A stretch of 64,000 nt of DNA from Eledone cirrhosa (lineage: Eukaryota): the NCBI GenBank assembly GCA_964016885.1, contig OZ024745.1:58528001-58592000 (forward strand), written 5' to 3'. The position numbers and the translations under genes are program-made. Below the pieces are notes generated by a model, which worked only from the letters and a program-made list of their open reading frames with translations, was not told the origin of the DNA and did no database searches. This document shows positions 1 to 51,100 of the stretch, in pieces (within the stretch, counting starts at the first letter, position 1; every line of letters starts with the position of its first letter).

Positions 1-688
1 TCCCGTTGGGGTGGCAGAGTCCTTTTTGTCACTTCCGCCCCAGGACCTATAAAGGGAATAAATTCCAGCTCTCTCTCTCTCATTTGCATTTCGGCTCCTG
101 GCCATTCGCGTTCGTCTGGCAACCCTAAAATGGCCTCTTCCGAGCTAACTTCAAAACGGTAACAAATAACTTTACTTCATTCTTTCATCTACTACTCATT
201 GACTTGTCAACTATACTATTCTACATAACTGCAAATTATTAATTAAACTTTATAAACACAAACCACGTCTCTTGTTATATTCATACAATCCAGTATTTTG
301 TTATAAGTATCACGTCGGGGTCACCACTTATAACAAAATACTGGATTGTATGAATATAACAAGAGACGTGGTTTGTGTTTATAAAGTTTAATTAATAATT
401 TGCAGTTATGTAGAATAGTATAGTTGACAAGTCAATGAGTAGTAGATGAAAGAATGAAGTAAAGTTATTTGTTACCGTTTTGAAGTTAGCTCGGAAGAGG
501 CCATGTTAGGGTTGCCAGACGAACGCGCCTGGCCGAAATGCAAATGAGAGAGAGAGAGCTGGAATTTATTCCCTTTATAGGTCCTGGGGCGGAAGTGACA
601 AAAAGGATTCTGCCACCCCAATGGGAAGCAACTCCAGCTACTTCCTGTCTAGAGAGCGTTACTCTATTGGTGATGTGATGGTCACAAC
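1..688 (-). mobile_element. LTR (about 327-688) plus tRNA-Trp PBS (309-326) plus inverted LTR copy (1-308, runs off the window)
   Basis: Arms 1-308 and 326-626 are near-perfect reverse complements. The loop ATCACGTCGGGGTCACCA equals the tRNA-Trp 3' end. The arm contains CCTATAAA and begins TGT on the minus strand. Confidence 0.8.
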
Positions 689-1101
689 AAGGGAGGCAAC
701 TCTTGCTACACTACTCAAAGATTTTCATCACCTGCCACATATCAACAAAAAGATGTCATCTCAATGTTTCAACATGAAAATAAACTGTAATACTGTAGTG
801 AATCAACAGCTTGGAACAAACAAATAAACTCTACTATATGTATTGAGTACTTTTACTCCAGTTTGTTAACTCAAATGTGTGTGTAGGAGAGTATATATAT
901 ATATATATATAATATATATATGTGTATAATTTGAAATGAAAACAAAACAAAGTATTATATAATAAATGAAAAAATATAAATCTGACTAGAATCATTCTAG
1001 TATGGAAGAATATTTAATATAAAAAGAAATGTAGTCATGGATAGAGGGAGGAATAACATTGCATTCTTTTGAGTAAATGTAAGAGACATTACTGACGGGG
1101 C

Positions 1102-9700: not shown

Positions 9701-12700
9701 ACCAACCACATTTACAGTGTTGACTGGGAACTTTTTACCGTGTTACCTACACGGCCACATTACAGCGTGGACTGTGTGTTTTTTGTCGTGACACCTACAC
9801 AATCTTGATTTCATTATCTCATTTATTTGGACGGGATGTTGTGGTACCAACTTTACAGAGAAAGGGTTTTGTTGGTGGGAGTGGGAGGATGGAGTAGGGG
9901 TAGTGGATTGGGGTGTATATTTGGTTAAGAGGTGCCTACCGACTGTAGGTTTTGCTTTGTACATAGGCAAGGCGGGTCTTCTGTATTACTGCGTAGCGCC
10001 AAAGATCTCAGTCCAGTGACATTGTCTTAGAGAGGTGCAAGTGTGTAAGGTCGGAATTTATCAGATCGTCCCAGGTTTTTCTGGGTCTACCTACTCCGTA
10101 ACTTCCATCAATTTTGATCACCCTGCACTTTTTTATACAGCTGTCATCTTTCATGTGCATCACGTGACCATACCAACGTAGTCTTCTCTCAAGTAAACAG
10201 CATCTGATCCCTCTTATTCCTAATTTCTCACTTAGTTCATTTATGTTTTGCCGTTCACGTATATTACTATTACACATCCAACGGAGCATGCATGCTTCGT
10301 TCCTTTCCAGTCTGTGCAGGTCCTCTGCACACAATGCCCATGTCTCACTGCCATGTAACATTGCTGTTCGTATACAGGCATCATACAATCTGCCTTTCAT
10401 TTTTAGAGAGAAACCTTTTGTGGCCAGCGGTATAAGCTCTCTGAGCTTTTTCCATCCCGTTCTGAGTCTGGCTACTGTATTTTCAGAGCACCCTCCACCA
10501 CTACTGATTTTGTCACCCAGGTAACGGAAAGTGTCCACTATTTCTATAGAACCATTTGGGACATAAAATGGAATTTCTACCTACTCCTTGCCTACACACT
10601 GAGCATGGCCATTTCCTAGAGGGCACCTGTGCCCTATTATCCTTTCTACATACTAGAACTTTAGTCTTAAACAAGTTAACTTTAAGGCCTTTTGATTCTA
10701 GGCCATGCTTCCATGTTTGGAATTTCTATTCTAGTTCAGCCATGGATTCAGCTATGAGAGTTAGATCATCTGTGTATAGGAGTTCCCATGGGCAGCCGGT
10801 CTTAAACTCCTCTGTTATAGCCTGAAGGGCAATAATAAATAGGAGGGGGCTAGGACAGAGCCTTGATGAACACTGACTTTTACGCTAAATTCTTCACTAT
10901 ATTCATTGTGATTCGAATTCTAACCTTACTGACTGTTTCTTTATACATGGCTTGTATAGCTCTCACAAGCCATTCATCTACACCTAGTTTTCTAAGAGCC
11001 CACCAGATAATGGAGCAGGGGACTCTGTCAAAGGTTTTCTCCAGGTCTAGAAAAGCTAAGTAGAGGGGTTTACTTTTAGCTAGGTACTTCTCCTGTAGTT
11101 GTCGTACAAAGAAAAGAATGTCTGTGGAACTTTAACCTGACACAAACCCAAACTGCATTTCATCTAGATCAATTCACTCTATGATTAGTTGCGCTATAAC
11201 TCTTTCTCCTCCTTTAGTAGCCTCTTGTAGTGACACTTCCAAGCTACCTTCTTATCAGTACCAATAAGGGCAAGTACACCATTATCATTATGGACACACT
11301 TCTCCCTCTTGTTAAAGTTTTATATGTCGTATTGTACATTTATATCATTAGATATTTATGTATGTATATATGTCATTCACTATTTTGTAATGATTAAATA
11401 CTCGGATTTATTCTTTGAATTTTTTCTTTGAGCTTATTTTGGGAGACAAGACACATTTTTGAGGTTATCTCAAACATGACATCTATCACTTTGAATGTAA
11501 TATATATAATATTTATATATATATATAGATAGATAGATAGATTCATTTTATTAAGGCTAAATAGTGAGTCTTGTTACTCTGGAGTTTCGCCTGTTTATAT
11601 ATATATATTCATGCTTAAATCCAGTTTCCCGTGTAAATGTGAATGGGATGATATGTTTTGTTTTTTTCTCTTAAAAAATTGGATTTCTTCATACTGCTGA
11701 ACCAAGTATTTATATAGTTAGATGGTATATCTTTTCTATATACTAAAAAGTAAGACTGGAACCAGGTAGGCTGGTCATTAACTCAGAACCTTAATTCCAA
11801 GAATGAGGAGAGCAGGCTAGTGGACTAAAAACAAATGTCCTTTCACTTGAAAAATAAAGTTAATTTAAATCATAAACTATTATTCATTAAGTTTTAAATG
11901 TATTAACAAACAATTGTTAGAAACAGCACTGGAAAGACAGATTATAGTGTAATACTGGCTATAAAACCACCTATAAACTTTACCAGGGCTGGAGGAAAAA
12001 AACTACTTGGACCAATTAAAGGTATAAAGAAAAAAAATCCATTCAAATATTAACAATAAAGTAATAAAGAAGAAAAACATTCAAACATGCAAAACAAAAC
12101 AAACAAAGATATACGTGCATGCTACAATATGGTAAAAATCAACTGAGTCATTTTTGGTGATTGGGAAAACAATCACCAAAATAACTGATATATTTTTACT
12201 TAAAGTTTTTTTTTTTATTTCTAATTAACTGCTATTATTATTTTTCTTTTTTTACAGCAACCAAAATCACAAATTAAAACAAATTAAAATTCCTCAAATT
12301 TAAAATGCCTATGTTTTTCTAAATTCAAAAGGAGTGAAAAATATTTGAATGTAACATCTTTTTCAAACTGACATTTAAATTTAAACTCTAATTAAAATAC
12401 AATAAATTCAATAAGACAGGATGTAGTCATAAAAAAAAAAATCACTTCCTTATTGAATTTCAACTCAAGTTCAAACTTCAATTTCATATTTCCCAAACTC
12501 TGAATTTTGACTAATGAAAAAAAATCTTAATTTTTAGTTCTATAAATTTAAACCTCCACAAAAATAAACAAAACAAATAAATAAAATAACTACTAAAAAG
12601 AATTGCAATCAAAATTTCTCAAGCATAGTATATAATTAATTTTACAGAAGTCTTTTCTTATCATTTTACACCTGTTTTTTCATGTTTGTATGGGCTAAGT

Positions 12701-20200: not shown

Positions 20201-23200
20201 GGAGCATAACATCATCAAATAAAATACATATTTTCAAAGTAACAAAAGTGATCTACTGATTCTATGGAGTATCAGAGTGACATAAGAGTACTCCTACCTA
20301 TAGTTATGGAATCGCTGAAAACAGTGTCAGCCAAAGATGCAGGACACTTAGATTGTAAACTGTAGTGACAGGATACTCCTGACTGAATATGTGTCCCTCC
20401 TTCTAAGTTACGCAGCACTAAGTTGTAGACAATGAAGCTACAGTTCTTCTGTAGCAAAGTATCAAACAGCTTCAATGATATCAAAGAAATCTGGAAATAC
20501 AAAAAAAAAAAATAAATAAAAAAAAAATACTTAAGCAATTTTAAAATTGATTATTTAAATACTAATATCCTCTAATGATTTAAAATTAGGTTTGTTAATT
20601 CAAATGTCTCTAGTGTCTTTACTAGGTGACAGATTGTTGTAAAATCTTGCAAGATTAGTGTAAAGACTTTACTTTTTTTTAAATGATGCAGCCATAGTGT
20701 TGTTTTTTCTTTCTAATGAAGTTTGTTAAGAGTTAATAACACTATAACTAGACTGACAAAATAACAGTTTCTAAAATCAAAACAATTATAATGCTAGTTT
20801 TTTAATTTATTTCTAATATGTACAAAAACGTTTGTGTTCATTAAACATCATTTTTAAGTCCTCTTTTCCATGCTGGCATGGGTTGAATGAAACACTTTGA
20901 GGTAATTTTTCTAAGGCTAGATGCTCTTCCTAATACCAACCCATAAATTATATTGAAGTATGGTATATACTGCTCACGATCATCAAACTGCCAAGCTATA
21001 GGATTTATTGTCTATCTAGGATATAAACAAACATCAACACTTGCTTTAAGCTGTGTCAATATGAAGACATACATGGAGACACATCACACACATATAATAC
21101 ATATGACAGGCTTACTCACAAGGCATTGCTTGATTCTATGCTATAGCAGAAGACACTTTTTCTAGGTGTCACACTATGGGATTGAACACAAAACTATGTG
21201 ATTGTGAAACAAGCTTCTTAACTACACAACCATGCTTGCACCTTTAAATTAAGAAAAAATCCCGAAAAACATTATAACAAAAATATCTACTGGTACCTCT
21301 TCTGACAAGTGGTTACATCTTTCTATTAAACGTGTCTTCATCTTACAAGTACTCTCCTGGGACTTTTCAGGCTTTTTATCATCGCCCAAAATGAAACGCA
21401 CAAATTCTACAGAAATAAAAGACATACATTCAAAAACAGATTAGTTTTAGTTCAACTGGAAATAGATATTATAAAACTAACAAACATTTTAAAGATGTAG
21501 AGGGAATAAAATCTATCAAGATGTTGATATGCCTAAATTTTTAATATAAGTTATATTGTTGTTTAACCCTTTCATGACTGCATTTTTAATGACATGCAGT
21601 CTATTTTAATTAATTAATTGTTTCTACTTTTGGCACAAGGCCAGCAATTATCCCAGTGTATTACTGGTACTTTATTTTATCGACCCCGTAAGGATGAAAG
21701 GCAAAGTTAACCTCGGCGGGATTTGAACGCAATCCGTAAAAGGACGTAACTGTGCTGCAAAGCATGGCATCCGACCCTCTACCGATACTGCCAGGATTTT
21801 TAGGGATCTAGTGAAATTCTTAATTATTTCATTACTAAGATAGTATCTTAATGTAAGGTTCTTATGTAAAATTATGTTGGAAGATTTTAATTTAAATAGG
21901 AACCGTTTATTTCATAGAACCAGAGCTATTTTTTTTTGGGGGGGGGGGAGTCAAGACCTGAGAATATATCATCATCATCATCATCATCATCAGCGTTTAA
22001 CGTCCGTGTTCCACGCTTGCATGGGTTTGGACGGGGGTAGTCCCACTTGAGGCAAGAGTGATTGTCTTGCTCGCATAGGACTGTCTGGCAGGTTTTCTAC
22101 AGTTGGATGCCCTTCCTAACACCAACCACATTTACAGTGTGGGTCTGGGAGGTTTTTACCGTGTTGCCTACACGGCCACATTACAGCGTGGACTGTGTGT
22201 TTTTTGTCGTGACACCTACACGATCTCATTTGTTTCGGCCTCGATGGCGCGGCACCAACATAACTTTACATAGAACGGGGTGGTGTGGATCGGGTGGGGG
22301 TGGTGGGACGGGGTGTATTTGTTAGAGATGCCTACTGGCTGGAGTAGGTTTTACTATATATTTAGGTAAGGCGGGTCTTCTCTGTTACTGAGTACCGCCA
22401 AAGGTCTCGGTCCAGTGACATTGTCTTGGAGAGGTGTAAGTGTGTGATGTCGGAGTTTATCAGCTCGTCCCAGGTTTTTCTAGGTCTGCCTATTCCGTGA
22501 CTACCGTCTATCTTTATTGCCCTGCACTTTGTTATACAGCTATCGACTTTCATGCGCATCACGTGTCCATACCAACGTAGCCTTCTCTCGAGTAAACAAC
22601 ATCTGATCCCTCTTATCTCTAATTTATTCCTTAGTTCGTTTATGCTTTGCCGTTCACGTATATTACTGTTACACATCCAGCGGAGCATGCAAGCTTCGTT
22701 CCTCTCTAGTCTGCGTATATCCTCTGCACACAATGCCCAGGTCTCACTGCCATGCAGCATTGCTGTTCGTATGCAGGCATCGTACAACCTGCCTTTCATT
22801 TTTAGTGAGAACCCTTTAGCAGCTAATAGTGGTATAAGCTCTCTGAACTTTTTCCAACCAGTTCTGACTCTAGCTACAGTACTTTCAGAGCACCCTCCCC
22901 CACTGCTGATTTTATCGCCCAGGTAACGGAAGCTGTCCACTATTTCTATAGAACCCTCTGCGCAATTGAAAGAGCTAGTAGTTTGTGGGCACTTGCTGCT
23001 ACTTATTGCACCAGAGCACCGGCCACATGTAAAATCTATGTTCTTAGTTAGCCTACCTGTGATCCCACTACATCTTTTATGCACCCATACTTTGCATTTA
23101 GGACATAAAATGGAGTTTCTACCTACGCCTTTCCTACACACCGAGCACGACCATTTCCCAGAAGGGACCGCCGCCTTGTTTTCTTTCCTACAAACTAGTA

Positions 23201-24160
23201 CTTTGGTCTTAGCCAGGTTAATTTTAAGTCCTTTTGACTCTAGGCCGTGCTTCCATGTTTGGAATTTCTTCTCTAGCTCGGCCATTGATTCCGCTATGAG
23301 TGTCAGGTCGTCTGCGTATAGGAGTTCCCATGGGCAGCCTGTCTTGAACTCCTCTGTTATGGCCTGAAGGGCAATAATAAATAGTAGTGGACTGAGAACA
23401 GAGCCCTGATGGACGCCGACTTTTACGCTAAACTCTTCACTATATTCGTTGTTAATTCTAACCTTGCTGACTGTTTCTTTATACATGGCTTGTATAGCCC
23501 TCACAAGCCATTCGTCAACGCCTAGTTTTCTAAGAGCCCACCAGATAATGGAGCGGGGGACTCTGTCGAAGGCTTTCTCCAAGTCGACAAAAGCTAAGTA
23601 GAGGGGTTTACCTTTAGCTAGGTACTTCTCTTGTAGTTGTCGTACTATGAAAAGAGCGTCTGTGGTACTTTTGCCTGACACAAACCCGAACTGCATTTCA
23701 TCTAGGTCAATTCTCTCTCTGATTAGCTGCGCTATTACTCTTTCCGTGACCTTCATGACCTGGTCGATTAATTTAATGCCTCTATAGTTACTCCTATCTA
23801 GGGCGTCTCCTTTACCCTTATAACAGTTAACGATGATGCTGCTATGCCAGTCCTTCGGAACAACCCCGTTTTGTACGACTTGGTTAACTATGCGGGTGAC
23901 CATGGTGTGTCCCACCGTGCCAGATGCCTTCAGCATCTCAGCAACTATTTCCGAAGGCCCAGCCGCCTTACCAGTCTTCATATCCTTGATTGCCTTACTT
24001 ATTATACTCCCCTCGACTAACACTGCTGGTCCCTCTATTGGGTCGATATGGGGGAGACTGCCTTTCTCCCAATTATTCTCCTCATTTAGAAGCCTTTCAT
24101 AGTGACACTTCCAAGCTACCTTCTTATCAGCGTCGGTGATGGCAAGTGTGCCATCGTCGT

Positions 24161-29484: not shown

Positions 29485-32400
29485 TACATTTATATATATA
29501 TATATTAATACAATTATATATATATATATACATATATATTAAAAATAAAGATAATTTATATTCTAACATACCTCACTGGAGCACATTGACAACAATGAAT
29601 TTACAATGGAATACTCTAAGGATCGCTTTGATGACTTTGGCCCCATTTGTGATAAAGGTGAAAGTTGTGCATATTTCGGTCCATCCGAATTCTTGGGAAC
29701 CTAATAAAGAAAATATTGAAAATCAGATCTTGACATCTATCTCTTTTGATATTGGTTTTTATATAAAACTGCTTCTGGTTTTATTATTAAAAAAAAGTGT
29801 TTTTTTTCTTTCTTCAAATGTTTATATTTATCAAAAAACCTTTCCATCATAATTTTATGTAAGAACAATTGTAAGTTATGTTCCAAATACCAGCTTAATA
29901 GTGAGAAAGTAGTTATATTAATAAATTTTGCCAAATTCTTGATTATTTATAAAATTAATAGAAAATCATAGACAAGACCCATCCAACTGATGTAAGCATG
30001 GAAAAGCTGACATAAAACGATGATAATAATGATGATGATGATGACTTTCATTAGAAATATGGTAATGTCCCACCCTTGCAAGCAGGGAAAAAGCGGACGT
30101 AAAATGAAATGATGATGAAAGGGTTAAATAATTGGAGATGAAAATAACAAAACATTTACTTTGTTCAAATCATCATCAACATCATTTGTCTTAACCCAGT
30201 ATGGCATTGATGGTCATGAAATATATAAAGTGTATAATGTATAAAATTAAATACTAACCTCCAAAAAGAAATTTACTAGGTATGGATCAGACTTAATTTT
30301 GGCACATAGGGTACACAGGAATTGAACTTCTTCATTTTCAGATGGTCCGGATTTAATTTCACCACATATCTTAATCAATCGCTGAAAAAAGGGATACATT
30401 GCAGTTTAATCAAATGGCACAGAATATATAATTTCTAAATGTCTAACCCATGCTAGCGTGAAAAAATTGACGTAAAACAGTGATGATGATGATAATGTTG
30501 CTAAAAGTTTTACATTTCTTTTATATAATTCAGTGATTTGAATAGCTTTCTTCTTATAGCTGGTTTTCCATGCTAGAAAGCAGAAGTAGGTTAAGCTTTG
30601 TTGCATCTACTTTTTTTTTCCGGTTGCAAACCCTCTTTATCACTAATAACAAAATGCTGAGATCAGTCACATACATTCAGAGATGTGCCTATTCACATGA
30701 AGTATACACATACAATTTTCAACACATAACTTAGTGGTCTGGGTCTCTCAAGTAATGTACCTCACAGCTATTGTAAATGACTACAACTGTGTATTTAGTT
30801 TTATTATAAACATATCCTTCTTATCCCCAGCTTCCAACCATAGAAACTACACCAAAGAGGGTTGAGAGGATCCTTCAGTTAGAACAAGACAACCTCTTTA
30901 GAGTTGGTGCCACAAAAAATGCACCTGGTAATCCTGTAAGGTGGTTGCTGATAGGGGGTGCATCTAGCTGTAGAAATCATACCAAAAAGGGGGCTGAGAG
31001 GACTATTCAGTTGTGTTAAGAGCACAATAATCTCTATAGTGTTGGTGTCAAAAAAATGCACCCAGTAGACTTTGTAGAGTGAGGGAACTTGTGTAACCGA
31101 GATGCAACTCCTGTCTTAACTGAGAGATCAGTCACTCCAATTAAGTCCTGACATGGTCTGTGATGATCCTTCTAACTCTTGCTAGTAGGTATAAAATGTT
31201 AAATGATGATGGTGGTGATGATAATGATTACAACATTTCTTTAGCTTTTTTTCTATACTGCTACAAGTTGTAGTACAACGGACAAGACCGATTTTGTTAA
31301 AAGGCCTCTCCCTATTTCAAAGACTAGGGGCAAACAAACCAACAAGGGATCTTCCCTCTATATGGTTGTTTGCTCAGATAGAAATAGCAGCCAAATTTCT
31401 ACTGTTGTAAAATAATATTAAAAAAAACATTTGTTGATCTAAACAACATTGAGAAAATTTGAAATGTAGTCATCTCATTTCTGTTGACTATGATGATAGT
31501 TGATCATAGAAAAAATTGAGCAAATAGCCCTGGGGATGTAAAACAAGTGGACAGAGGTGTTCACATTCTTCTGTTTCCTGGGGTAATTTGCCTGATTTTT
31601 TTTCAACCATTATTTATAGTGATCAACAATTATAGTCATCTGCATTGAGACAACTACATTTCAAATAAATAAAAACAGTAGAGACATACTGGATGATGTC
31701 TGGGATAAACTATGTCTAAAAAGAGAGGATGGTCATGAAGGGAATGTCACTGATCAGTTCTGCTTGATCAATGCTGGCCTGGGGCTAAACTATAAAAGCT
31801 AGTGAAAAATGTCAATTTGTAAAAGAGGGCTTTCTCTTCATTTTAAGTAGATTATAGTAGAATGACTTACCTGTACAGCCCTGTGGACATTGATGTGTGG
31901 TAGCAAAGGTTGTTTTATTCGAGTCAACAATCGTGTGAAAAATGACAAAACAACTTGTTTCATTCCAGGTGGACTCTACAAGTTAAAAAACAAAAAATAA
32001 TAAGGATGTAATAAGTAAAACAATTACTAGATGGGTTTATGAAAGATAACAGCTGAAAATTTGCTAATCTAGTTACAAATAAAAAGCAATTACAAAGGAA
32101 ACAAAGAAGATCGAAGACAGCCATATTGGTGCCACAACAATAGCACCCAGTGCACCCTGTAAGGTGGTAGTGTTGGTGCCATGACAATAGCAACCAGTCT
32201 ACCCTGTAAGGAGGTAGTGCTGGTGCCACAACAAACACACTCAATCCACCCTGTAAGATGGTAGTGCTGGTGCCAAGACAATAGCACCCAGTACACCTTG
32301 TAAGGTGATAGTGCTGGTGCCATGACAATAGCACTCAATCCACCCTGTAAGGTGGTAGTGCTGGCACCACAACAAAAGCACTCAATCCACCCTGTAAGAT

Positions 32401-35400
32401 GGTAGTGTCACAACAAACACTCAAACCATCCCATAAGGTGGTAGTGATAGTGCTGACAATAGCACCCAGTCCACCTTGTAAGGTGGAAGTGCTGGTGCCA
32501 CAACAAAAACATCCAGTCCACTCTGTAAGGTGGTTGTGATGGTGCTGGCAAAAATCACCCAGTCTGCCTTGTAAGGTGGTTGACATCAAGGAGAGCATCT
32601 AGCTATAGAAAACTAAACCCAAAATGGAGCATATGAGCAAAATTTTGTCACCTGTCGTGTCTAGCCTCATAACCTGACAGCCAATCTAACTCATACAATC
32701 ATATGAAACAAACGTTAAACAGTGATAGTGGTGATGACATTACAGATTAAAATCTGATAAAATTACAAACATTAGGTCTTACTACATATTACTGAGCCGA
32801 CAGAGGAACTTACATCATTCTTGCCCAGTGTGTAAAGAGTTTCCAATAGCTTGTGGTGTAACATGTACTCCATACAAGGCCCAGTACTACCCGATTCACA
32901 TGTTTGTTCTTCTTGCTGAAGTATAGATAACATCTGTTCCAAATGACTTGGTAGGTTTGTTTGGTCCGCAGGCAGTCTCTCATCTGAAATAGTTTAAACA
33001 ATTACAAACAATTAAAGCAATAATTTAAGAGAAAAATTTTTTTTTTTACCATAGACTCAATACAATATGAAACCCAATGTAAAGTTGTGGAATTTCACAA
33101 CAAGCCACATATTTCAAGCAATCCTTCAGGAGTTAGAATAAACCAATGAGGAAGGACATAGACAGAAAAAAAAAAAGAAAAAAAAATTCACACCATGATT
33201 ATTCTAGTTATGCTTTCACATATATATCATGAGGCAAGCAGCCATAGAATGTTGTGCATAAAAATACAGTTAGTAAAAGTTAATAAAAAAAACATCTATC
33301 CAGTTGCTAAAAAAAACAAAACAAAAAGAGCTTCAAAATGTATCAAAATTTAGATATATAAATGAATAAATGGATGTTAACCCTTCAGCATTTAAACTTG
33401 CCGTATTCGGTCAGAATTCTCCCACCTCTTTATGTTCAAACCCACCATAACTAGTCACCCATACTGATGTTAAGGTATTGTTCTCAAAATAAATAATAGC
33501 AAAATCTCATAGATTTTATATTATGTGAGGTAAAGCCTTTATCATGAAAATATAATAGTAAACAGAGTAATGTATATGCTAAAGGGTTAAATACATCGCA
33601 ATATTTAGCTCCCTCAGAGCAACCTAGTGCTCAACAACAACAATGAACAAGGATATTGAAATCAAATAAACACTTCTATAACACACACAGATATAGTAAT
33701 GCAATACCTAAACAATCAACAATGCTTGACCTGCTAGAAATTGCAATGAAAACCACTTCAAATCACAACCTGCCTTCATTAAAAATATGCACATTTGATA
33801 TTAGATCTGGAGACATTATGTCTGAAAAAAAATGAGATGGTCATGGTTAAAATGCTTTTGATCATACAGGTGCTCTATCAGAGCTGAGCAGAGGCTAAAC
33901 AACAACAAAAATTAAAGACAAGGATTCTAAGAACTCACTGGCAAACTATGACCAAAGAAATACCTTTGCAATGTAATCAGTGGAAGATTGGTGGAAAAAA
34001 AAGGACTTTCAGATGCATTAAATATACAAGCAGTAGAGACACTCATTAAGATGATTGACTATATGCTATAGATTGTTTTTAGTCAGTGCTAGGACAGTTC
34101 TCACTTCAACAGAGTTTTGATTGAAGATGTTCCAGCAGCAATAGTCCTGTCTCTCTCTTCCAAATGTAGTGTAACCATGATGATGTGCCTTATGAGTTGA
34201 TGTAATCAATGGTGGGAAATATTGTAATCTATTATATCTATATAGCCTTTCTGTATAATATATAAATATATATGAAGTATTTCCGTCGGAAAGGTACAGA
34301 AAAAAGAGTGCTCTATGTAGGCTACAGAGCTTATTAGTTATGTAATAAACAACATAAGATAATTATTTCATTTACCAGTGGTTTCTTGAAGGCAGATGTT
34401 TTGTCTGTCTTCAGTCGTCAGAATGAATAAATAACATGGTGTTTTTATTAAATATGGATTTTAAAACAAAATTTAGGAAATATGAAAGTGACCTCACTTT
34501 CATATTTCCTAAATTTTGTTTTCAAATCCATATTTAATAAAAACACCATGTTATTTATTCATTCTGACAACTGAAGACAGTCATAACATCTGCCTTCAAG
34601 AAACCACTGGTAAATGAAATAATTATCTTGTTGTTTATTACATAACTAATATATATATATATATATATATAAAATGAAGTACAGTACTTCATTATTATAA
34701 TTATACTCTGCAGTAAACAGATCTACTTGTATACTTCATTGAGTGCTCTATCCTGCATGCAATTGTGTCAGTGATTAACTAACACATACTTTACCAAATA
34801 TACATATATATATATATACATACACAAATATATAATAATAATAATCCACAAACAGTTTTATTAAACTCTGGTGAAGAAACCAAATATTTTTTCTTCAGTC
34901 CAGAAAACAATGGGTTATGTAATAACTAGAGCAAGAAAAGTGCAGAAGTTCAGGGAGCTGTTACCTCTATTAGAAACAAAGGGTCTTTCTCTATGTGCAA
35001 CAGGTGGACTGTGTGAATTTATGCGAAAGGAGTATGATGCTGCATGGTAATGAGACAAAAGCCTTGAACGCAGATCTGCAGAGGCTGGAGAGAAATGAGT
35101 TGAGTATGATTAGATGAACAATATGAACATGTATGTTTAGTGAGTGACTGAGTAAATGTACGCTGTAAGAAGCTGAAGCAATGGTATGGATATGGTTATA
35201 TGATAGGAATGAGTGATACAAGCTAGGTAATAATGTGTTCAATGTAAGGTATTCATAGCAGAGCCATAAGAAGAATGATAGAAGAAGTGTTGATGTCAGA
35301 CCTCAAGATGTTGGGCCACAAAGAGAAGGTGATACAGGACTAAGAAAAATGGTTGATTAGCCATGCCACAGAAATAGCCAACCAATACTAGCATAAAAAA

Positions 35401-48198: not shown

Positions 48199-51100
48199 AA
48201 TTATTGTGTAAAGTGTTCAGGTGCACTACAACTCGTCAATATAGTACATAGAATAATACACAAATGCCAGGGAAGTACATGTTTGTATGTGTTAGCTGTA
48301 GTGTTGGCGGATCTCGGGAAGCATGGAGGCCTTAAAGGATGCAGTGTCTCGACAGCTAACAACTGATGCAGGTAGTTTGTTCCATGCTTCAGCAACTCTG
48401 AGCGTGAAAAAATGTTTCCGAAAGACCATGGGAACTGTGCTGTTTTCTTACTTTGTGGGCATGTCCACGTGTGTTAGACACATGGAAATCGAAAAGGCAC
48501 TCAGGGTTGTTGTTGGCAACATGGTTAACAATTTCGGTTAGGTTAACATAGCTGTATACAGCCTTAAATAGATATCTGGAGAGCGGCTGACAAAGGTCTT
48601 GCTGAGTGATGCTAAGACACCCTCGGCCCTCTTGACAATTTTAGAGACGTGCCTCGTCCAACGCAAATCGTTGCTGACCGTAATGCCCAGGTCACGTTCA
48701 CAGGAAGACTTCTTGATATTAGTGCTGTGGAGGGAGTATGTGGATGCTGGGTTTTTACTCCCAAAATGCATGGTGGTGCACTTGTCCACAGCTAGCTTGA
48801 GTTGCCAGTTTGAGATCCACTGTTGCATTGTGTCCAGGTCAGACTGCAAGCAGTTAAAAAGACACCCTCGGCCCTCTTGACAATTTTAGAGACGTGCCTC
48901 GTCCAACGCAAATCGTTGCTGACCGTAATGCCCAGGTCACGTTCACAGGAAGACTTCTTGATATTAGTGCTGTGGAGGGAGTATGTGGACGCTGGGTTTT
49001 TACTCCCAAAATGCATGGTGGTGCACTTGTCCACAATTTTGTTTACCAAGTCAGTTGCCAGGCGTCGGCGCTTCAATGAATCCATGCCCAGGGAAGCAAG
49101 GCGCTCAGAGTATGGTAGATGCCTGATGGAGGGTATTCGCTTGGTTGCACGTCTCTGAACAGTTTCCAGGCGGTCAATGTCCTGAGCAAGATAGGGGTTC
49201 CAGACTGGTGATGCAAATTCTAAGTGTGGTTGCACCATAGCTGTATACAGCCTTAAATAGATATCTGGAGAGCGGCTGACAAAGGTCTTGCTGAGTGATG
49301 CTAAGACACCCTCGGCCCTCTTGACAATTTTAGAGACGTGCCTCGTCCAACGCAAATCGTTGCTGACCGTAATGCCCAGGTCACGTTCACAGGAAGACTT
49401 CTTGATATTAGTGCTGTGGAGGGAGTATGTGGACGCTGGGTTTTTACTCCCAAAATGCATGGTGGTGCACTTGTCCACAGCTAGCTTGAGTTGCCAGTTT
49501 GAGATCCACTGTTGCATTGTGTCCAGGTCAGACTGCAAGCAAGATCTATAGTGTTCAGGATCTGTCCTTTTTATCTCAAGGTACAGCTTGATGTCGTCTG
49601 CGTACTTTAGTACTGTGGCATTCCTTAAGTTGGCATCTATGTCATTAATATATGCCACAAACAAAAGGGGGCCAAGAACAGATCCCTGAGGTACACCAGA
49701 TGACATCTCATATGGTGAGGAATGCTGTCCCAGAACCGTGACTACCTCTCTTCGACTGAGAATGAAGGACTTCAACCAGTTAAAAAGATCATCCTTCACA
49801 CCCATTGCAGAGAGTTTTGCCATAAGCCTTTTGTGTGGCACAGAATTGAAGGCCTTCGCAAAGTCAAGGTAAACAACATCCACCCATGAGCCGCCATCAG
49901 TGATCCGGGTGATGTCCTCAAGAAACTCTATAAGTTGATCACAGCAGCTGGAGTTGGGGATAAATCCAAATTGCGAGGGCCGGATAAGACTGTGAGAGCT
50001 CCAGAAGTTCCAAAGTGTTTCTCTGACACAGGATTCCATCAGTTTGGCGATGCAACTAGTAAGACTGACTGGACGATAGTTCACAGGTGATGTGCGGTCA
50101 CCCTTTTTGAACAGAGGAATTACACTGGCAGTTTTCCACTGTTCTGGAGTAGCACTGTTGTTCAGACAGAATTGGAAGAAGCGTGATAACTGGTGTAGAA
50201 GGAAGTACCCACCACGTTTAAGAAGCAGGTACGTAACACCATCAAGACCAGGAGAGGCATGGTTGCGTTTATTTTTTAGGTGACGTCGCAGCATTGCAGG
50301 TGTAAATTCCATGGTTGTAATAGAGTCCGGTGTCATAGGTGGTGGAGATGGTACATTCTGGTCTTCAATGGTGAAAATGCCTGCATAGCATTCAGCAATG
50401 AGCTCTGCGCATTCCTTGGGGTCGTCAGTAACCTGGCTTGTGTGGGGATTGCGAAGAGGACCAACTGGAGAGTGAGGCCTCTGCTTTGAGTGAACATACT
50501 TCCAGAACACCTTACTGTCAGGGCTGGTTGCTATGCGCTGCTCAAATTGAAGCACTGCCTTTTTTGTCACCTGTTTGAGGTGGTTGGACGATCTATTTCG
50601 CCTCTTCCTATTAATGTCTGATTTGTGAAGTTTGTACTCACGTTCAGCATTGCGCCGTTCTTTTCTGGCAAGACGGACTGCTGCAGTCATTAATGATAAT
50701 GATTTAATTTTCTTATTATAATGAGCAAGTTAGTTTTCTTGCCAACACCCTTCAAATACTTGGTTATTATAAGCAGTGTCTTTCATAAAGAATATGATAA
50801 AGAAAAGGTTTTTAAAAAAATCACACATTATATAGTGTAGTTTTAGATATAATTTGAACTTAAGATGGAATAGTTACAGCTGGCATACCTTTGATTCCTA
50901 TAGAGATCTACTCTGCAATATCCAGTATTGATTAATATAGAACCAATAATAATGCAGTTAGAGTTATGAGTGTGCTCTAATAAAGACAAAAGTTTCAGTA
51001 GCTCAGATTCAATTGCCAAGGTAGCTAGTTCATTTATTTCATTAAATGCTTTTAGGTAAGGCCTAGGCATGGTCATTGTTTGAATCGAATCTTACAGAAC

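Follow-up and report, generated by a model that had tools for sequence, protein, structure and literature searches.

A two-U3-ended LTR palindrome with a tRNA-Trp sequence at its turn in the genome of Eledone cirrhosa

Introduction

How does an LTR come to face an inverted copy of itself across a tRNA primer-binding sequence, with no genes in between? This question is raised by a locus at the left edge of a 64,000-nucleotide stretch of Eledone cirrhosa DNA (contig OZ024745.1, positions 58,528,001 to 58,592,000 of the forward strand), hereafter called the window. A sequence-only reading of the window proposed that strong-stop DNA had folded back and copied itself, leaving either a frozen replication intermediate or a member of a MITE-like class derived from an LTR retrotransposon. 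Here, the locus is described together with its parent LTR family, the related junctions of the same genome, and the possible routes to its formation.

Structure of the Palindromic Unit

The palindrome is 791 bp long and spans window positions −80 to 710 (G000:C5:58527920-58528710). With the sequence left of the window included, it starts with TGTAGCAAG and ends with CTTGCTACA. Both termini are the LTR start TGTAGC, and the unit therefore has TG...CA ends. Alignment of the arms confirmed the inverted repeat that had been claimed for positions 1–308 and 326–626, which are reverse complements with a perfect inner 179 bp. When compared along their full length, the arms are 95.4% identical and are set apart by 7 substitutions and 3 indels. 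A left arm with the same TG terminus had been predicted about 60 bp beyond the window; it is present and begins 81 bases to the left. On the right, the LTR begins not with the TGT near 686, as had been supposed, but with TGTAGCAAG, and the end of the unit falls at 710. CTAC is duplicated at both borders, which agrees with the expected target-site duplication (TSD) of 4–6 bp around the whole unit; the probability of a chance 4-mer match is 0.5%. The symmetry continues for 0 bases into the flanking DNA, i.e., the palindrome does not run into unique sequence. The 18-mer assigned to the loop (309–326) is in place, but only 17 of its nucleotides are unpaired, as A326, its final base, pairs with T308. 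Each arm keeps a TATAAA motif at LTR position ~129. The unit contains no genes, no polypurine tract, no direct repeats, and no element-internal sequence. The features of the locus are collected in Table 1.

Table 1. Coordinates of the locus and properties of the units with a matching 4-bp duplication.
Feature	Window position	Strand	TSD	Copied back (nt)	Remark
Left arm: LTR in sense, ending in U5 ...GTTATA, then AG and T	1–308	+			arm start at contig position 58527920, 81 bases left of the window, after the left CTAC
Unpaired 17-nt loop	309–325				from arm pairing
18-nt primer-binding-site sequence, complementary to the tRNA-Trp(CCA) 3' end including CCA	309–326	−			siblings: first 12 nt only
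Right arm: LTR from TGTAGC (710) to GTTATA (329), AG spacer (327–328), primer-site base 1 (326)	326–710	−
Right TSD copy	711–714	+	CTAC		left copy at L003 1477–1480
Last coding exon of the neighbouring gene, with KELAA motif	1983–2105	−			outside the unit; stop 1983–1985; AATAAA at ~1924 and ~1643
L147 (this unit)			CTAC	389
L119			TATA	372	TSD inside a TA repeat
L169			GATA	277	after ~29 nt of tRNA read-through
L155			AGAC	145
L312			AACT	51
L253			AAAC	8	first found by targeted search
L287			AACT	5

A palindrome of this kind could be an assembly artefact built from fold-back reads, which we consider very improbable. The inner 179 bp are identical and all 10 differences lie outside them (p ~0.002, post hoc), a pattern that polishing could cause; the absence of the central loop junction among the public contig pieces listed says nothing either way. 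Yet the arms have diverged to the extent given above, their symmetry ends at the LTR ends, and the TSD is exact. The public contig X1 bridges the left junction over 399 bp with 0 differences, and the contig X2 reaches 25 nt inside the right arm, although both may come from the assembly's own sample. The contig X3, from a second sample of the same study, bridges the left junction with 11 differences. In addition, six other units of the same build carry TSDs. Hairpin-driven homogenisation was considered as a general rule and rejected: 53 events were counted in the inner halves and 38 in the outer halves of 8 other units, and the identity of the inner 179 bp is not mirrored in those units.

The window holds further repeats. 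A second palindrome (34356–34629) has 136-nt arms that are 97% complementary, with a 2-nt spacer and no primer site. Direct repeats at 9945–11206 and 22344–23744 consist of ~300-nt blocks that are 85–91% identical and 12.4–12.5 kb apart. Two more repeats, a 47-nt tandem one and a 300-nt direct one whose copies are 100% identical, lie at 32080–32585 and 48547–49535.

The Primer Site and the Parent LTR Family

The 18-mer corresponds to the 3' end of this genome's tRNA-Trp(CCA) genes plus CCA, which bears out its earlier identification. When the arm was used as a query, 2030 first-look candidates were obtained in the 3.0-Gb assembly, and the best other copies among the 40 that were scored are 83–93% identical to it. 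The 25 full-length LTR copies examined comprise 8 solo LTRs, 7 of which have an exact 4-bp TSD, and otherwise 5' or 3' LTRs. Two complete elements of the parent family (L236 and L237) are ~2 kb long, with direct LTRs, a primer site, and a purine-rich tract, and no ORF of at least 150 aa was found in them. A family with this LTR beside this primer site thus exists, as the first reading required of its parent, and it is a non-coding family whose primer site is 12 nt long. Indeed, the site matches tRNA-Trp over 12 nt and then becomes A-rich in 8 of 9 sibling 5' LTRs, the ninth being mutated at base 9. Across the genome, the LTR end leads into these 12 nt plus A in 137 cases and into all 18 nt in 12. 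The latter are this unit, nine sites that continue into tRNA-like sequence and then a repeated U5 end, and two that continue into other sequence; the LTRs at the other full-18-nt sites are only 69–85% identical to that of the unit.

No autonomous element with the unit's exact LTR was found among the loci examined. Other Trp-primed elements of the genome encode a CHCC Gag motif, reverse transcriptase (RT), RNase H, and an integrase with GPY/F. Both CHCC Gag and the GPY/F integrase are present in L076, and CHCC is present in L239, whose LTR is 78% identical, while no coding sequence was seen in the unit's own subfamily. According to the available portion of PMC2582038, the CsRn1 clade of Ty3/Gypsy combines a tRNA-Trp primer site, a 4-bp TSD, CHCC Gag, and GPY/F, and its elements are described as common in cephalopods in the corresponding portion of PMC6238403. 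The tRNA-Trp primer site and the 4-bp TSD of the parent fit this clade, so the parent may be regarded as a non-coding, CsRn1-like Gypsy family.

Because the parent primer site is only 12 nt long, the 18-mer is likely a copy of the tRNA and not inherited element sequence, and it was likely made as plus-strand strong-stop DNA. The strong-stop origin put forward earlier is supported in this respect, and the 12-nt site of the siblings strengthens it. For retroviral RTs in vitro, plus-strand synthesis halts 18 nt into the tRNA owing to m1A58 (PMC8599865, available text). By analogy, the same stop would apply to the elements of this genome.

Genomic copies of the 18-mer also continue beyond this point. 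At 127 exact sites, which belong mostly to a few expanded families, the sequence goes on with A and then CG. In L032–L042 and L076–L078, which represent several expanded families, the 18-nt primer site is followed by A instead of the T expected opposite tRNA A58, by more tRNA-like sequence, by a repeated U5 end, and by a second, shorter primer site. This pattern suggests that a read-through of the modified base became fixed and was then propagated. Three independent read-throughs (L169, L257, and L306) end at about the same place past the anticodon, at tRNA position ~28–29, which we take to be near an m2,2G26 stop. ARAGORN detected no tRNA in five read-through loci. At G000:C14:21370169-21464594, 13 copies of one primer-site junction lie on one strand, most of them 4–6 kb apart, and probably form a tandem array.

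Recurrence of Two-U3-Ended Units

The exact 18-mer occurs 410 times in the genome (223 + 46 + 14 + 127). A screen covered 221 distinct loci out of these 410 and was complemented by one targeted search; sites of the ACG class and some of those in the GA and TC classes were mostly passed over because the copies seen are ordinary elements. Another 14 sites of one junction type were examined apart from the 221. An inverted BLAST match was present in 29 rows of the 221. In 17 of them, the match starts −6 to +28 nt from the primer-site end, and the other 12 are spread from +118 to +836. Among the 17, L253 gave a spurious flank match and L206 a weak one.

By inspection, seven units open with an LTR start, close with an inverted one, and are flanked by a matching 4-bp duplication (Table 1). 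Five further two-ended candidates (L079, L124, L196, L213, and L248) are without a clean TSD, and L084 and L277 have a purine-tract-like left side. The chance of at least 6 TSD matches in 12 is <1e-7, for a set chosen by eye in which some loci have two candidate starts. At least four LTR families contributed to the two-ended units, and no TSD-bearing junction was met more than once in the sites examined. Collectively, the same architecture recurs in several LTR families of this genome. A comparison of L169 with Rfam gave generic hairpin matches only, all of them sub-threshold. In the sister palindrome L066/L119 (G000:C1:398.03 Mb), the left arm is separated from the primer site by a T-rich insertion of ~190 nt. 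At nine sites (L247–L255), the first 8 nt of one LTR family come after the primer site in inverted form, and the copy runs into the purine tract in two of them.

The junction of the unit itself was found at 1 site, both as an exact match and when up to 3 mismatches were allowed. This result bears on the MITE-like class of the first reading, i.e., a mobile class derived from an LTR element. The unit does have terminal inverted repeats, a TSD, and a non-coding sequence. However, such a class consists of many dispersed copies, and MITE-like expansion of the unit is ruled out because its junction occurs once. Moreover, every TSD-bearing sister unit has its own junction and length, the unit has no polypurine tract, and its ends are the U3 start of an LTR family rather than DNA-transposon ends. 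Membership in a MITE-like class is thus exceedingly improbable. As a locus, the unit is a single dead-end insertion with no shown function; it is also a clean member of a recurring kind. A search for inverted U5 ends with any spacer gave 225 sites of an unrelated AT-rich repeat, and a metagenome scan for the loop with 3-bp arms gave one locus, L245, which is an ordinary element without a long inverted repeat.

Origin of the Unit

It is very probable that the unit goes back to an aborted second transfer and to tRNA-tailed DNA that was inserted by integrase. As to the priming step, we give about an even chance to a route in which plus-strand strong-stop DNA used its tRNA-derived tail to prime on another plus-strand copy of the LTR, with the product inserted by integrase via its two U3 ends. 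Its first step starts from the parent family with its 12-nt primer site. RT would have advanced along the primer tRNA as far as A58 and copied 18 nt, 6 of which would be unable to pair with the parent primer site. The tailed 3' end would then have met, end to end, a second plus strand ending one base into the primer site, presumably the end left after tRNA removal in a Ty3-type scheme. Extension of both 3' ends would give a duplex with two U3 ends, and the TSD suggests that this duplex underwent concerted integration. The inserted unit would be a dead end because it is without a polypurine tract and direct repeats.

Several features of known systems are consistent with these steps. In retroviruses, a single tRNA-derived base can remain at the strong-stop end. 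In Ty3, a second strong-stop DNA, whose end lies at U5 once the tRNA has been removed, displaces the initial tRNA-tailed one, and dead-end products build up (PMC5371799, available text). RTs are able to clamp 2-nt overlaps, as described in the accessible part of PMC3035444. In a model based on this clamp activity, 3'-to-3' joining of two strands would yield both the sequence of the unit and two duplex U3 ends.

The turn points provide further evidence. In L253 (6 bases), L277 (5), L119 (3), L312 (3), L079 (6), and L155 (5 of 6), the last 3–6 bases of the primer site serve as microhomology at the turn, which is about the length left unpaired by a 12-nt primer site. In this unit and in L125, which belongs to another family, the turn comes exactly after primer-site base 1 with zero overlap, i.e., at a natural DNA end, which argues for priming between two strands. 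Junctions between different LTR families are present in L095, L099, and L317–L327, and intermolecular switching therefore happens in this genome. At 14 sites (L317–L330), one primer-site copy lies head-to-head with another family's post-primer sequence via a 3-nt overlap, with several upstream LTR ends, and these sites mark a recurrent intermolecular hotspot.

The zero overlap of this unit and L125 also suits end-joining, as the junction could be a blunt join of two natural ends. Here, integrase would receive one U3 end from each of two separate LTR DNAs, whose U5 ends would be joined by ligation or by host repair, one with a 17-nt overhang and the other ending opposite the terminal A of the tRNA. 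In most sister units, however, the turn lies at an internal microhomology and the copy extends back as far as the U3 start, which is a polymerase signature, and the unit's junction shows no deletions or filler. End-joining is accordingly quite unlikely.

A close rival to priming on a second strand, possible though doubtful in our judgement, is the intramolecular fold-back of one strong-stop strand. This strand would have primed on its own U5 end with 1–2 bases, namely an A that was added or misincorporated opposite A58 and a C after it. It would later have become double-stranded and integrated. The base at position 19 is an A and pairs with base 1, and the base after the 18-mer is A in 12 of the 37 in-register read-through copies examined (T in 22 and G in 3). 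The two arms are sisters (support 100/99) and share 9 states that are rare in the 25 other copies, which single-strand fold-back explains equally well. Self-priming has also been described for HIV-1 minus-strand strong-stop DNA (PMC4668388, available text). On the other hand, a hairpin offers one duplex U3 end, and a lone hairpin is insufficient because two such double-stranded ends are required for a 4-bp TSD. In the predicted DNA fold, the tail is paired ~40 nt upstream and not at the observed turn. Furthermore, the cross-family junctions listed above cannot arise by this route.

Priming of the tail on a second plus strand remains our preferred reading. The arms differ at site 102 and in a recurrent 14–15-nt deletion, both of which are variable among family copies. 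Most arm differences are private and so do not point to two templates, and a two-template comparison has few homologous copies to draw on for most units. The five two-ended candidates without a clean TSD, the TATA of L119 within a TA repeat, the inferred nature of the intermediate, and the fact that yeast and retroviral enzymes are the source of what is known of Ty3 and the clamp all weigh against a firm mechanism.

Neighbouring Gene and Potential Transcripts

A 40-aa exon with the Pfam KELAA motif is encoded on the minus strand, and its stop lies 1.27 kb from the unit, in agreement with the ~1.3 kb given earlier for the FHIP stop. The KELAA motif presumably marks the FHIP family, which would make the neighbour an FHIP-like gene. 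The read-through dsRNA that had been envisaged from this gene is unsupported, since two AATAAA and one ATTAAA intervene between its stop and the unit. A predicted fold of −399 kcal/mol for a loop-spanning transcript of 501 nt is a trivial consequence of the palindrome. Because the TATA-like motif in each arm faces the loop, long-armed units might act as ready-made hairpin-RNA genes, and a replication error of Trp-primed Gypsy elements might regularly make loci that silence their own family, although we regard this as unlikely.

Significance and Comparison with Known Systems

In the accessible text of the literature, including PMC6894440, PMC10886601, PMC13282606, and PMC6238403, no integrated unit was found described that has two U3 ends and a tRNA copy at its turn; this reach does not extend to supplements or to older articles under subscription, and a prior report may exist. 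The two-U3-ended integration product is a recurring and, it seems, undescribed kind. In such units, germ-line DNA has retained an intermediate that, as a rule, is observed only within yeast or retroviral particles. Genome sequence can thereby be used to test three points: whether animal Gypsy elements follow the Ty3-type scheme, in which there are several strong-stop DNAs; whether integrase can work in vivo with two U3 ends, even when as few as 5–8 bases have been copied; and, through the cross-family junctions, which families share particles. The neighbouring copies carry mixed bases where RT has read through tRNA A58. Annotation software built around direct LTRs is likely to label these units as MITEs or solo LTRs.

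In non-autonomous elements of the TRIM/LARD type, a pair of direct LTRs encloses a primer site and a polypurine tract. The parent family resembles them in its length of ~2 kb, its direct LTRs, its primer site, its purine-rich tract, and its lack of an ORF of at least 150 aa. The palindrome, unlike them, has no direct LTRs, no internal sequence, and no purine tract; a TRIM/LARD identity was thus rejected for the unit, whose LTRs are inverted, and applies to its parent family instead. DIRS/Ngaro and Penelope-like elements have inverted repeats but neither an integrase-type fixed TSD nor a tRNA primer site, and this identity was rejected since the unit has a 4-bp TSD, TG...CA ends, and a tRNA primer site. 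With the CsRn1 clade, as far as PMC2582038 is available, the unit shares the tRNA-Trp primer site and the 4-bp TSD, but it is gene-less, its LTRs are inverted, and both of its ends are U3.

Complex LTR insertions in Triticeae are similar in that an abnormal template switch during reverse transcription gave chimeric DNA, which was then inserted (PMC1950507, available text). Yet those are large fusions of two elements sharing an LTR, whereas the unit is 0.8 kb long and inverted, with a tRNA copy at its turn. Retroviral self-primed strong-stop DNA and the RT clamp involve priming on 2–3-nt overlaps within or between strands, but according to the available parts of PMC4668388 and PMC3035444 these were in vitro reactions, on the minus strand, and not integrated germ-line products. 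The dead-end plus-strand strong-stop DNA of Ty1/Ty3 is likewise composed of U3-R-U5 and a tRNA-derived tail that is not passed to normal progeny, with a second strong-stop DNA ending at U5. Its tail, however, is 12 nt long and it accumulates in particles (PMC5371799, available text), whereas the Eledone unit carries 18 nt and is an integrated inverted dimer with a TSD.
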